DNA of 64,000 bases from Candidatus Latescibacterota bacterium (GTDB lineage: Bacteria; Latescibacterota; CBDEFO01): NCBI GenBank assembly GCA_965248755.1, contig OZ252149.1, forward strand, positions 3,712,001 through 3,776,000, given 5' to 3'. A program made the translations under genes and the position numbers. Below, one piece after another: positions 17,883 to 25,654 of this stretch. Below the pieces are notes generated by a model. It was not told the DNA's origin. It saw only the letters and a program-made list of their open reading frames with translations, and ran no database searches. How positions within the stretch are numbered: the stretch's first letter is position 1; the number at the start of each line of letters is the position of its first letter.

Positions 17883-18047
17883 TGTGTTTGCTCCTATGCT
17901 CAAGCCGCATTTTCAAAAGCTCTGTGAATCCCTACCAAACGTGGAAGGATCTTAACAATTACACACTTACATGCATGACTAGCGAAAGTGAACAGAGGCA
18001 TGAAACACTTGGTGAGGAGTTCCTTGATGTTTCTGACAGTGCGTGAG

Positions 18048-18289
18048 TTAGGCAGAATGTGACTTGATCTTCAATCGCTCCCAGTAATTGCTCATGCTTA
18101 CATACGATTCCTTATCAACACTCTTCAAATACTTCAACCAACCACCTACAGAGTTTTCGCTTGTATACTTGCTGTCCTTGCTCAAGTCGAATAGGAGATG
18201 ATGCATAACAGCTCTCATTTGTCTTTTCTTCTTTCGCCCAATACCGATTTTGGGTTCAGAGCTATTCTTAACCAGCCCGGTGATCGAAC
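18048..18289 (-). pseudogene. C-terminal part of the retron reverse transcriptase, separated by IS3
   Basis: Open frame SITGLVKNSSEPKIGIGRKKKRQMRA...GWLKYLKSVDKESY...KSHSA*; ITG is the retron region-Y (VTG) motif; not in the ORF track. Confidence 0.88.
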
Positions 18290-18318
18290 TGTACTGCCCC
18301 CCAGAAAAGCGACATCAA

Positions 18319-19204
18319 TTAAGCAACTTGGGGTAGCAGATAAAATTGTTTTCTCCACTCTTCCGGGGTCTTGTATCCCAGAGATGAATGAAGCCAGTTC
18401 TTGTTGTAATTATCGATCCACTGAGATATGATCTTCTCAGCTTGTTCAAAGGACTTGAAATTGTGAAGCCACACACACTCCTGCTTGAGGGTCCTGAAAA
18501 AACGTTCTATGACCCCGTTCCAATCGGCCTTTCCGCTCGGAATATATTCTTGACGAATGTCCCAATATTCGGTACTTGCCAAATAGGTCCGAGACAAAAA
18601 GATGGAGCCGTTGTCAGAGCGCAAAGTGAGACCCTGGGGGACAGCCTCCTTAGGAAGTGTATCGAGAGATCACGGCCCGATCCAGGGCATCTGTGGCCTC
18701 CAGTGCCCTCCCTTTTCGACTAAAACGATACCCGGGGAACCTCCCGACTCCCGTTGTCCACCACCGCAATAAGAGGACACCAACCATCTTCCCCACAATA
18801 GATCTTGGTCAAGTCAGCCGACCAGAGACTGTCAGGACGATCCATCACAGAACGCTTCTGGGCAACCTGTGGCCCCTTTCTCCCGGGGTCCCCGATTGAT
18901 TCTATCGGGGATTCCACAGCTTACACTGCCACCCCTTAAGCTTCATTATCCTATGAACCTTCTTGATGTTGACATATGCCCCTTCCTTGAAACGAAGATG
19001 CGCCCAAACCCGCCTGTGACCAAATGCCTCTTCTTGGTCGAGTATCCCTCGAATACGAAAAGCAAGCTGTTCATCTATCACAGACTCTTCGACAGAAGAA
19101 CTGACACCTCTATACCTAAGCCTACACAGAGTCGAACGATGCAAACCCAAAGCCAAAGCTACCACCTTCCGGGAATAGCCTCGACCCAAAAACCGCTCAC
19201 TCAA
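18319..19204 (-). pseudogene. IS3-family OrfB (DDE integrase), disrupted
   Basis: Broken by the 21-bp palindrome at 18890-18910 and by frameshifts near 18735 and 18650. Confidence 0.82.
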
Positions 19205-19530
19205 GGCAACCGCTTCGTTTTTTTTAGACGGGCTACCTCCTCGAGTATCTCCAACTGGAGGGTTAAGTGCCCTACCTTACGCTCCAACCGGCTGACCTCC
19301 CGCTCCTTCGCATCCTTGCGACCACGCCGAGACTTCAGACTCTCCTGGCCTCCTTCCAAGAAACTATCACGCCAAGCATACGCCTGTGACTGGCTAATTC
19401 CATTCTTCCAACACACCTCTGATACATTCGCTCCTTTCAAAACAGCCAACACCACCTCTACCTTACGGGTCGCCGTCCAGCGCTTACCATCTTTCACTTC
19501 GGGGCTTGACACCTTGACCTCCTTTCTCAA
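19201..19530 (-). CDS. IS3-family transposase OrfA (HTH)
   Basis: KRWTATRKVEVVL...VSEVCWKNGIS...AW, leucine-zipper-like tail. Confidence 0.85.
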   Translation of the reverse strand: MRKEVKVSSPEVKDGKRWTATRKVEVVLAVLKGANVSEVCWKNGISQSQAYAWRDSFLEGGQESLKSRRGRKDAKEREVSRLERKVGHLTLQLEILEEVARLKKTKRLP

Positions 19531-19577
19531 ACCCCAATTTGCAAAATATTTGTCGCCCTGTCAAGGGGAGCGGTATG

Positions 19578-20284
19578 GAACATCTCTTTCTTGGGCCTAG
19601 GACCCTTAATTTATCAAGATTGAGTTTAAAGTGTTCCGACTTAATAATCTTCAAAACTATGGACAACGATTGGCAAAGCACTTTTGGATTATTTGAAGAG
19701 AAGGTTAAGTCATCTGCGTACCTAGTATATATAATATTTCTTCTCGATGTATAACCTGCAATTCTTCTATCAAGTTTCGCTGCAATTAGATTTGATAATG
19801 AGGGGGAAGTAACAGCACCCTGGGGTAAGTTGCCATCGCAAGTACAAAGATTGGCAAGAGTAGGGGCAGCCTTATTGGAATATCCAATGAGTGAGAACAC
19901 TTTTGCCACACGTCTTATCGAAATGGAAGGAAAAAAATCTTCTAGATCCAAACATATGAAGTATCTGTTGTTACTATGAGGAGATACATTCCCCAAAATG
20001 CCCCTTTGTAGAATGTAAGCCGTAGCATATGGGGAAGGACTTAGCTTATCTAGAATATTTCTGAGTATCCAAGCCTGTATTCCCTTCAAATCTTTTCTGG
20101 GTTGTCTGATTTCGCGCAAAGTACCATTCGATTTCGGTATCGAATACCTTTTGTAGTATCTGCGTGAAAACTCACTAAGCATTACAACCAGCCCTCTGTC
20201 AACGTGCATCAACTCTGCCAGTTCCTTTTGATCAGAGAACACAGGTAGATCCATTAGTCTCAACAGTGCGAAATTACTATTCAT
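19578..20284 (-). pseudogene. Retron reverse transcriptase (Ec86/St85-like), N-terminal part; 314 aa when the IS is removed
   Basis: IPKSNG..REI..P, region-X-like NVSPH, DLEDFFPSI, LPQGAVTSP.LSN, YTRYADDLTFS; rejoins in frame with 18285-18048. Confidence 0.92.
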
Positions 20285-20285
20285 T

Positions 20286-20488
20286 AGAATTTATGGGGCG
20301 AAACAAAAGTCACTTACTCAAAGCATCGCGCAGCGACATGAAATCACGACCTGATGTCGCCTTGAACGGTTTTCTTCAGAAAACCGTTCGAACAGTAATG
20401 GGTCAGTTTACATCCGGAGTGGCGAAACACCACTCAGCTCGTCAGATGACAAGCCTGACTAAGATCATTTTGTTTCACCCCATATTCT
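20286..20488 (-). ncRNA. Retron msr-msd non-coding RNA
   Basis: 17-bp terminal inverted repeat (20468-20484 with 20292-20308, one G-U); CUUAG branch-site context (G at 20459); two msr hairpins (about 20437-20454 and 20417-20435); two msd hairpins (20364-20389, 20333-20360). Confidence 0.88.
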
Positions 20489-21370
20489 CCTATAATTCTT
20501 TCTGAGCGTTAAATTTAGAGCACCTAATCTGAGTTCGGTTAAGAATGACGAAAGTATTCGTGCGCTCTTCTGTGTCTTATTTGCGTACATCAGATTCTCT
20601 ATCCCTGCAAGGGTTGTGGACAGAACTCCTGAATTAAGCGATACTTTTCTTTCTCCGACTAAGCTGTTTATCGCCGTTTCTGCGGCAGTCGCTACAGTCT
20701 TTTCTTCAGTGTTCGCCAGTTTACTTGAGATCTCAATGATTGCAGCTCTTGGTATCGGCTCAAATACATAGATTAATGCCAAGTAGAATCTGTACGCAGA
20801 AATAGGATTCGATAAATCTCTTATTGGTGTAGCATGTTGCGCCACAGCACGTGAGGCATCCGCTATTTGCTTGACGACAGCCTCTAAATTGCTACTTTCC
20901 ATCGACAGATCAAGAACTCTGCTTTTGGTCTTCGTTCTCAGGTATCGAATTGGTCCAAGATTAATAAAGCTTTTCGCTCGAGCAAACTTTGGATTAATCA
21001 CAACAATCAGCTTGTCCCTTAACTTCTCGTGATTTGTAAACGCACCTAGTTCAGTGAAAGTTCCTGGACTTTGGAGTAGAATGACGACAGCATCTACACC
21101 ATTAGCTAGAAGATTTTCTAAAGTTAGCAAGTCGTGTTTTTGATGTCCAAGGATCAGCTCGATAAACATATCTTCCGGATAGTATATAGAATATCTGTAT
21201 TTAGAGACTATCCCGGATATTCCGTCACCAACATCTCTTCTAAATCTCGTTTCTTCTGAAGAACTGCCACCACAAAGAAAGATTGATACTTCCTTTCTGT
21301 CTTGGACTTCATCTAAGAAGAAGTTCCTTAACTGTTCTGCTACTTCCATAACCTTGGAATTCAAAATCAA
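20465..21370 (-). CDS. Retron effector (St85/Ec86-type NDT-like / N-glycosidase fold with C-terminal wHTH-like region)
   Basis: IFLCGG, YPEDMF, DLLTLENLLA, SPGTFTELGAF, SFINLGPIRYL; GGAG RBS before TTG; adjacent to msr-msd and RT. Confidence 0.88.
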   Translation of the reverse strand: MILNSKVMEVAEQLRNFFLDEVQDRKEVSIFLCGGSSSEETRFRRDVGDGISGIVSKYRYSIYYPEDMFIELILGHQKHDLLTLENLLANGVDAVVILLQSPGTFTELGAFTNHEKLRDKLIVVINPKFARAKSFINLGPIRYLRTKTKSRVLDLSMESSNLEAVVKQIADASRAVAQHATPIRDLSNPISAYRFYLALIYVFEPIPRAAIIEISSKLANTEEKTVATAAETAINSLVGERKVSLNSGVLSTTLAGIENLMYANKTQKSARILSSFLTELRLGALNLTLRKNYRRIWGETK

Positions 21371-21442
21371 AAATTCTCCGCTCTAATTGCAAAATGCCAG
21401 AGCACCGATAAGAATTGGTCTCTACTGAGCATACCCTGCATC

Positions 21443-21471
21443 AATATACGCGCTAACTTGCTTATTGTCAA
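21443..21471 (-). promoter_or_regulatory. Sigma70-type promoter of the retron operon
   Basis: TTGACA-17 bp-TATATT on minus strand, about 70 bp upstream of the effector start. Confidence 0.75.
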
Positions 21472-21474
21472 TCC

Positions 21475-21553
21475 AAAATACACCCTTAATCCCCCAAGGA
21501 TAAGCCACGTAACCATCAGGATGTTTTTCAACGATAATCTTGAATTGTCTCAT
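21475..21553 (-). pseudogene. Truncated HicB-like antitoxin N-terminus
   Basis: GGAGG RBS then MRQFKIIVEKHPDGYVAYPWGIKGV; resemblance is lost at the retron island edge. Confidence 0.55.
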
Positions 21554-24038: not shown

Positions 24039-24387
24039 AGCCTCTTCCGGATATTAAATCAGTAGACGGTAGCCCCCGAATGATTCTATCGGGGATCGGG
24101 GGTAGGGAGGGACTCCTCCGTCCTCCATCTATGCTACCCACTTTTTTTCACAGTGTCAAGACTTTTTTCACAGTTGGGCTTGGAAAGTGTAAATCTCACT
24201 GAAAAAATGACCTGAAGAGACAGCAACTCGGCTCTTTCGCGAACCGACAGTCACTCGCTTACACTTTTAGAACTTGACAGAAGGAAGGAAATTCATTGCA
24301 TTGTAAGGCAGTTATCTATACAGAGGAGCACTATCTTGCTTAGTGCAGACGCTCTGGTCTGCCCCCATACAAAAAAGGAGTGCAAAA

Positions 24388-25654
24388 ATGGCTGTCGAGT
24401 CCGCAGGGTCCAGTGCAGCAGGTGACCCCCATAATGGACGCAGCAAGAATGGTAAAGGTGAACAGTTCTCCAAGATGCCCATAGACTCAGTCTTGTCGCT
24501 GGATGGTCTGTCCGACAGGGCAAAGCTTGTGTATGCTGCTATCCAAAAGTGGGACTGGGGGCAAGGATGTTTTGCAGGGCACAAGAATATAGCCGAAGTC
24601 CTCAGAAGGTCTGAAAGCACTGTAAAAAGGGGAGTCAAGGAACTCAAAGACTCAGGACTTGTAACTATAAAATATGAAGGTCGCGGTCTCAATGCAGCGA
24701 TTTATGTCCTGCAAGATCAAGACAGGTCAGATGTGACCTCTCAAGATCAAGACAGGTCAGATGTGACCTCTCAAGATCAAGACAGGTCAGATGTGACCGC
24801 TCAAGATCAAGACAGGTCAGATGTGACCTCTCAAGATCAAGACAGATCAGATGTGACCCATCTAGACAGCTCAGATGTGACCTCTCTAAACAGGTTAGAT
24901 CTGACCTATCCTTACAATATAACAGACGACTTGGAAATAGACGACTTAGAAACAGACGACACACCTCATGCATGCGGTGATGCTGGCGGTGATAATGACT
25001 TCTCAAAAAGCAAAAGGGAAATAGTCATCCAGTTCTACAGAAAACTTGATCTGCCAGAGGTGTCCAAGAGCTATATAAAGCTTGGCATAAGGCTCATAAC
25101 TAGGCTTGAGAGGCAGGGATACAGTCTTGAGCAAATAGATCTATGCCGCAAGCTGGACACTGGATAATTGCCTTCCAAAGCACTTCGGGCTAGTTGCGCA
25201 TACGATCGGTGAGGCATTGGCGGAAAGGCACAGAAATATCGAACAGGAGCGCATAAGACAGGAACAAATAGTGCGAGAGGAGGAACGTAAGATAGCTCAA
25301 GACGCCAAGCTGCAGGAAGAAGCACAAGAAAGGAATAGAATAATTGACCGATCTCCATACAAAAAGGAGTGGGATCGCTACAGGGAGCTGATTAGAGCGG
25401 AGATTAAGCATCAGTCATACATGACGTGGTTTACTGGGCTTTACATAGATGAGTTATCCGACGGACAGGTAACTTTGAATGTCCCTCACAGGTTCATGGC
25501 TGACTTCATAGGAGAAAATTACGACAAATTGCTAAGGGATATATTCCAGAGAGACGTGAAGCTTCAATTAGAGAGTAGCCCCCGCTCCCCCCCGATAGAA
25601 TCATTCGGGGGCAGCGAAGCCTCTGAGATTGCTTCGTCAGACAGGAATGTCTGA
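24388..25654 (+). pseudogene. Replication-initiator-like protein (N-terminal HTH, internal repeats, C-terminal DnaA-N-like domain) with a +1 frameshift near 25141
   Basis: LSDRAKLVY...IAEVLRRSESTVKRGVKELKDSGLV HTH; removing one base gives ...EQIDYAASWTLDN... running into WDRYRELIR.EI...SYMTWF......VTLNVPHRFMADFI. Confidence 0.68.
24712..24907 (+). repeat. Intragenic 30-bp tandem repeat (iteron-like)
   Basis: CAAGATCAAGACAGGTCAGATGTGACCTCT about x5, then two shorter degenerate units; core palindrome AGGTCA-GATG-TGACCT. Confidence 0.95.

Follow-up and report, generated by a model that had tools for sequence, protein, structure and literature searches.

A disrupted type II-A3 retron in Candidatus Latescibacterota whose priming stem shares bases with the end of its effector gene

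Introduction

Why should one arm of a retron's priming stem lie inside the coding sequence of the retron's own effector, with the other arm close to the start codon of its reverse transcriptase (RT)? The question is raised by a locus in the genome of Candidatus Latescibacterota bacterium (assembly GCA_965248755.1, contig OZ252149.1, positions 3,712,001–3,776,000 of the forward strand). We refer to this 64,000-nt stretch as the window and give coordinates as positions within it; the retron and the element inserted into it lie on the minus strand. An initial annotation suggested that the arrangement could couple toxin translation to antitoxin synthesis.

A type II-A3 retron related to Ec86

By its sequence, the window locus is a retron of type II-A3, the type of Ec86 (Eco1), that has been disrupted. 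Its parts stand in the order effector, non-coding RNA (ncRNA), RT. The same order is given for Ec86 in the source text available to us, and the available part of PMC7736814 files Ec86 under type II-A3. The effector gene (20465–21370) is intact and encodes 301 aa from a TTG start, comprising an NDT-like domain together with a DNA-binding domain at the C terminus. It matches PADLOC NDT_II-A (5e-67), NF038232 (150 bits against a cut-off of 100) and the Ec86 effector in the PDB (2e-35), and its residue E107 aligns with E106 of the Ec86 effector, which the accessible literature text names as catalytic. The gene is single-copy in this genome, and when 40 other genomes from the phylum were compared, 2 contained a match, weak in both.

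The RT is likewise of the Ec86 kind, with YADD in its N-terminal part (19578–20284) and an ITG triplet further on. The N-terminal part matches PADLOC RT_II-A at 4.8e-90 and the Ec86 RT in the PDB at 1.9e-49, with the next retron at 1.7e-27; its 226 bits lie under the NF038233 cut-off of 235. We place the RT in clade 9 on its search scores to solved RTs. The ATG at 20284 is likely the RT start, judging by aligned loci: an ATG lies 7–14 codons upstream of the 20254 position in 85 of the 92 homologous loci described below. A start at 20254 was rejected, as just 17 of the 92 have an ATG there. Between effector and RT, the predicted msr-msd carries terminal inverted repeats, an unpaired priming G and the P3 hairpin.

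A consensus scan predicts a sigma-70-like promoter at 21443–21471 (minus strand; 11 of 12 consensus positions match), and the same scan found no minus-strand promoter between this site and the ncRNA. Because the one candidate promoter lies upstream of the effector and no further site precedes the ncRNA, we infer that effector, ncRNA and RT form a single transcript in the window.

An IS3-family insertion splits the RT

The initial annotation did not record that the RT is interrupted just ahead of region Y. An IS3-family element of 1,288 bp (18290–19577), flanked by a 4-bp target duplication and with a broken OrfB of its own, separates the N-terminal part, whose reading frame runs on for 29 codons into the element, from a C-terminal part (18048–18289) comprising region Y, or the thumb. 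The latter begins at ITG, the equivalent of the VTG motif, and is 36% identical to residues 243–307 of the Ec86 RT (E 4e-12); in homologous loci the two parts are contiguous.

The IS3 family has undergone a large expansion here: the genome holds 15 near-identical copies of the element and 69 full-length related copies, and the target duplication is 4 bp in 13 of the 15 copies with exact ends, the window copy included. Short-read contigs, drawn from four runs of one sample, bridge the two junctions and contain no joint that skips the element; contig depth at the locus is 2.6–8 and contigs drop rare variants, so that a rare allele free of the element could be missed. Given the exact duplication, the spanned junctions and the lack of a skipping joint in these contigs, we judge an assembly artefact unlikely. 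The 1,288-bp subfamily has the same broken OrfB in each of its 15 copies, whereas OrfB is open in most 1,266-bp copies; the 1,288-bp group thus looks non-autonomous yet recently mobile. The left end of the 1,288-bp element begins CA, unlike the right end, which begins TG. Contigs of two runs contain a form of the element short of 383 bases (window 18911–19295), probably a shorter derivative located elsewhere in the genome or sample.

According to the consulted section of PMC6868368, region Y starts at VTG, and its deletion abolishes msr binding. The insertion has removed region Y from the window RT, so neither msDNA nor defence would be expected from this copy. It lacks the intact, region Y-containing RT of a functional retron and is probably dead; its family origin is unchanged by the disruption. 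The initial annotation had suggested mutating the stem arms and the branching G; on the window copy such mutagenesis would be uninformative, because its RT is split.

The effector beside the broken RT has stayed intact. By analogy, this is probably tolerated because Eco1-type effectors are non-toxic alone: PMC8989520, in the portion consulted, describes the Eco1 effector as non-toxic on its own, and the available text of bioRxiv 10.64898/2026.10.13.758329 describes the Eco1, Eco3 and Vch3 effectors as non-toxic dimers. The kinship of the window effector to Eco1 would point to this group, as against the toxic RcaT retrons (Sen2, Eco9), whose effectors form tetramers and are toxic when RT-msDNA is missing.

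Genomic setting

A genome of the same genus carries at this site a pair of genes encoding 74 and 79 aa (L162:1028–1491), the second of which is a HicA toxin. In the window the retron cassette (approximately 17896–21479) sits at the site of this pair, and only the first ∼24 codons of the 74-aa gene remain (21480–21553, minus strand). The cassette appears to have replaced the HicA pair, one defence-type module for another. The 74-aa gene, whose sole Pfam match is a weak one to DUF5678, may be HicB-like. Elsewhere in the window, the ORF at 24343–25167 contains several tandem copies of an 11-residue unit (24689–24860) and is followed by a short ORF; the two look like a replication-initiator pair of a mobile element.

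The priming stem and the ncRNA fold

The geometry that first drew attention to the locus holds on re-examination of its coordinates. The outer 5′ arm of the priming stem (20484–20468) lies inside the final effector codons and is dual-coding: it encodes W-G-E-T-K and takes in the last two bases of the preceding Ile codon. It is followed directly by the UGA stop (20467–20465), which sits in a 4 × 4 internal loop (UGAU/UGAC), then by the 5′ side of an inner helix, CUUA (20463–20460), and by the predicted branching G (20459). The 3′ arm (20292–20316) mirrors this with the inner UAAG (20316–20313), the UGAC side of the loop and the outer arm (20308–20292). The two outer arms pair along 17 nt, with G-U at one position, and a spacer of 7 nt separates the outer 3′ arm from the RT ATG at 20284.

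Folding and arm covariation, both named in the initial annotation as ways of checking the stem, bear it out. The predicted fold of the window ncRNA has a free energy of −86.1 kcal/mol (z = −7.48), and 0 of 200 shuffles were as stable. Across 16 homologous ncRNAs the 16 pairs of the priming stem are 90.6% paired, with two-sided changes at 12 of them, a level of covariation that 0 of 500 shuffles reached and that compares with 42–56% pairing in slid controls; the stem tested was derived by RNAalifold from the same 16-ncRNA alignment, a circularity that favours the result.

Within the msr, folding and alignment define a stem-loop P2 (20437–20454), and a second stem-loop, P3 (20417–20435), carries a UUU loop and is the putative RT-recognition hairpin by homology to Eco1. 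For Eco1, the consulted text of PMC11754653 places the priming G right past the arm in a UAGC context and gives the UUU loop as the motif that the RT recognises. In a plain alignment, on which the ncRNA homology to Ec86 rests, G20459 aligns with the priming G of the Ec86 CUUA-G and the window's UUU-loop hairpin with Ec86 P3, in keeping with the msr likeness originally proposed. A UUACUGU segment, cited as a further resemblance, does have its match in Ec86, but it varies among close homologues. The msd region (20333–20389), the predicted msDNA template, forms two hairpins (20389–20364 and 20360–20333), of which the first covaries and the second is variable among homologues. An Rfam scan of the 64-kb window returned no match at the gathering score.

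Two other features of this region were set aside. A branching G at 20455, the pick on energy alone, would have lower duplex stability and lacks homology to Ec86. An 8-codon ORF opens at an AUG that overlaps the UGA stop, with a Shine-Dalgarno (SD)-like run ahead of it in the arm; the AUG is absent in several relatives, and we treat it as a likely by-product of the loop sequence.

A UAG that ends on G20459 lies in frame two codons past the UGA of the window effector, and close relatives have a sense codon at the position of that UGA. On the RT side, the 3′ arm is pyrimidine-rich and has no SD. The initial annotation had the arm covering the RT ribosome site: the position of such a site is indeed covered, but the SD is absent (anti-SD duplex +1.5 kcal/mol).

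The overlap across homologous loci

The window effector was aligned with 73 of the 120 homologues listed, and 153 loci were fetched. Among viral contigs a single-protein scan gave no match and an alignment scan gave 19 loci. An RT lies downstream of the effector in 128 of the 153, no RT match was found in the retrieved DNA of 24, and one is broken. Requiring closed ORFs and a gap of 100–330 nt, and removing identical regions, left 99 loci including the window; a stem could be assigned in 96, and four doubtful ones (L003, L081, L108, L112) were dropped by hand, giving 92 scored loci in which the positions of the branching G are predictions. One of the loci (L137) is Ec86 itself: 306 of 307 residues match PDB 7v9x_C, and it is 99.9% identical to E. 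coli BLR(DE3).

The 5′ arm overlaps sense codons in 83 of the 92 scored loci, so the arm is kept inside the coding sequence in homologues, as the initial annotation would have it. How the stop stands to the branching G is less constant. The stop, a UAG, ends exactly on the G in 35 loci, Ec86 included; it lies upstream of the G, with the arm in sense codons, in 38; in 10 the effector ORF continues past the G; and 9 have no sense overlap. The extremes of the stop-to-G register are 55 nt past the G and 44 nt ahead of it. In one clade (L020, L024, L125, L134) the effector ORF extends 43–55 nt past the predicted branching G into the msr, and the read-through adds an extra tail that looks conserved.

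Coincidence of stop and G exceeds the expectation of a random-frame model (14.6 observed against 6.8 expected over 35 clusters at 60% identity, clusters that are still kin; median p 4e-4), and it is seen at ten different tail lengths. Strict conservation of the coincidence was rejected: the register drifts, with 13 changes of the stop-on-G state on a midpoint-rooted FastTree phylogeny under parsimony. Of the 40 spacing changes inferred on that tree, only 18 are in frame, compared with an expectation of one in three (p = 0.08), which makes the excess less telling.

Two side observations came from the same loci. In L001, L055, L056 and L058 a different long hairpin takes the place of the 3′ part of the msd, and a segment that most of the clade has just ahead of the 3′ arm is missing, a pattern that suggests exchange of an msd module. 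In L016 and L123 a II-A3-like retron shows the same overlap, and the L016 record is labelled as an ANME-1 archaeon.

Explanations for the overlap

We think it likely that the window holds an ordinary II-A3 retron, broken by an insertion sequence, in which the C-terminal peptide of the effector and the priming stem share the same bases. The overlap would persist because these bases have two duties, encoding a peptide that the effector–RT–msDNA complex needs and pairing with the 3′ arm. The ORF would end at the first stop available, be it the UAG conserved in the priming motif or a UGA that has arisen in the internal loop. A given transcript would then be either translated, or folded and primed, with no special regulatory switch required.

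Two lines of evidence make such dual coding the best-supported reason for the overlap. In 34 of 40 hand-picked loci of the local clade, an in-frame Trp codon lies 21–23 nt before the G, at the outer end of the arm; among these 34, the frame relative to the G is shifted in 10 and the first base of the Trp codon is unpaired in 13. For Ec86, the consulted part of PMC12746101, citing another paper, states that defence requires the peptide Y299–P307, which touches both msr and msdDNA. Against dual coding, the tail of the window effector has low pLDDT in a model of the free protein, the close relatives L096 and L107, whose RT matches are unbroken, have lost the tail altogether, and L107 keeps the TGG even though it is not coding there. 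Moreover, stops fall on the G more often than in the random-frame model, an excess that compaction by itself leaves partly unexplained.

A different explanation, which we regard as improbable, makes the overlap a regulatory switch. Ribosomes terminating on the effector would melt the stem and expose an SD-less RT start, and priming at the G would remove stop and start from the message, closing a feedback loop on both proteins. The replicase of the RNA phage MS2 provides an analogy, without homology to the window retron: there, translation of the upstream coat gene opens a long-range pairing that hides the downstream start. In folding predictions for the window the stem does hide the RT start, and once the 5′ arm is removed positions −12 to −1 become open; in the same test on Ec86, removal of the 5′ arm did not open the RT start. 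Most RT starts do lack an SD: their median duplex energy is +0.4 kcal/mol (89 loci), while the best effector start has a median of −4.65 (86 loci), although picking the best among several starts biases this comparison. Duplexes of −4.5 kcal/mol or better occur at 18 loci. Eight of these belong to the Ec86 clade, where a weak motif lies inside the arm; at the other ten, nine SDs are wholly beyond the stem and one partly so, which counts against the switch and led us to reject sequestration of the SD by the 3′ arm as a rule of the family.

Other observations on the switch divide in the same way. The excess of stops ending on the G, spread over so many tail lengths, speaks for it, yet the register is labile and few spacing changes beyond chance are in frame; nor do the nine loci without sense overlap fit it. 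The strong promoter-like site upstream of the window effector would suit a switch on one transcript, but of 87 loci only 3 have a promoter with 11 or more of the 12 matches ahead of the effector, so that a single transcript may not be general in the family. Parts of Lopez et al. (bioRxiv 10.1101/2021.03.26.437017) place the Eco1 RT ribosome-binding site (RBS) in or near the 3′ arm; the same parts report that Eco1 ncRNA and RT yield abundant RT-DNA without the effector, under overexpression. Regulation of translation by retron RNA does have a precedent in type VI, in the text consulted of bioRxiv 10.1101/2025.10.22.683967. The reported harmlessness of Eco1-type effectors tells against coupling of a toxin to its antitoxin, a framing that fits poorly. 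Translational coupling of that kind, as first proposed, is thus weakly supported. Given that most RT starts have no SD, the RT could be coupled to effector translation, but such coupling need not be invoked.

Slightly more doubtful still is the narrower idea that selection has made stop and priming site one in II-A3 retrons, termination and 2′-5′ priming being mutually exclusive and together setting the ratio of effector, RT and msDNA. Were it true, translation of the effector would make the SD-less RT start accessible, priming or trimming would leave an effector message without a stop, and the ratio of the three components would be set without a protein regulator; any such coupling would give the best-studied retron one more level of self-regulation.

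The least probable account is neutral crowding, in which a dispensable effector tail runs into the purine-rich arm until the first stop and its conservation is a by-product of constraint on the RNA: the tail past a conserved Arg can be anywhere between 10 and 37 residues long, its pLDDT is low, stops in Bacteroidota-labelled loci fall 9–19 nt before the G and L096 and L107 do without a tail, but the Trp stays in frame across frameshifts downstream of it, the first base of its codon is often unpaired, and the terminal peptide of Ec86 and tail tyrosines of Eco11 are needed for defence according to the source text consulted.

Significance for work on native operons

As a disrupted member of a well-studied family, the locus itself carries little weight. 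Of the coincidence of the effector stop with the predicted priming G, seen in 35 of 92 II-A3 loci, we found no printed mention; the kind of overlap is known. The running text covered by our literature search contained no statement that the stop of II-A3 or Ec86 ends on the priming G, and none on translational coupling. Word searches of the accessible text of PMC12548924, PMC8989520 and bioRxiv 10.1101/2023.08.16.553469, 10.1101/2020.06.21.156273 and 10.64898/2026.10.13.758329 found no passage on either point. The coincidence may be in print in the main Ec86 structure papers, or in supplements or figures.

The overlap has practical consequences. In native II-A3 operons the effector stop frequently ends in the priming G, so that mutants of the branching G, extensions of the arms and C-terminal tags on the effector each alter two components together; such experiments need a control for this. 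In addition, ncRNA callers restricted to intergenic sequence clip the 5′ arm.

Comparison with known retrons

The overlap is not special to the window locus; across the sequences compared here, it is the normal layout of the Ec86 family. Retron-Eco1 (Ec86) and the window share gene order, an NDT-like effector with a matching catalytic Glu, the priming stem, P2, the UUU loop of P3 and a 5′ arm in the last codons of the effector, and the closest solved RT to that of the window is the Ec86 RT. In Ec86 the 5′ arm encodes Y-A-H-P, the priming G is the last base of the effector UAG stop and the 3′ arm ends 6 nt ahead of the RT ATG, compared with 7 nt in the window. The two differ in several respects. 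Their effectors are about one third identical, and the window stem is longer and in two parts with an internal loop. The window stop, a UGA, precedes the G by six bases, whereas the Ec86 UAG ends on it; the Ec86 3′ arm has a weak SD-like motif and that of the window has none. Unlike Ec86, the window retron has two short msd hairpins and an RT split by an insertion sequence.

Overlap of a retron ncRNA with the end of its effector gene is already in print for Retron-Eco11 (type III-A3). In the section consulted of PMC12746101, the Eco11 ncRNA extends into both neighbouring genes, the effector at its 3′ end and the RT at its 5′ end, and the stop codon is bulged within a two-part inverted repeat. 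Eco11 thus resembles the window in its ncRNA overlap, bulged stop and clade 9 RT, and its effector tail is described there as functional. It differs in having a PRTase-like effector and another msr and msd structure.

A more extensive overlap is described for the type VI retron Vpa2, in which, according to the available text of bioRxiv 10.1101/2025.10.22.683967, the entire toxin ORF and its RBS lie within the RNA and msDNA relieves the repression. Neither a toxin ORF with its RBS in the RNA nor an HTH partner is found at the window locus, where the effector starts ∼900 nt upstream of the ncRNA and no extra gene stands between effector and RT. Vpa2 and the window are alike in that retron RNA overlaps effector coding sequence, and in Vpa2, by the same text, translational control is demonstrated; they differ in extent, from a whole toxin ORF with its RBS in Vpa2 to the last effector codons alone in the window.
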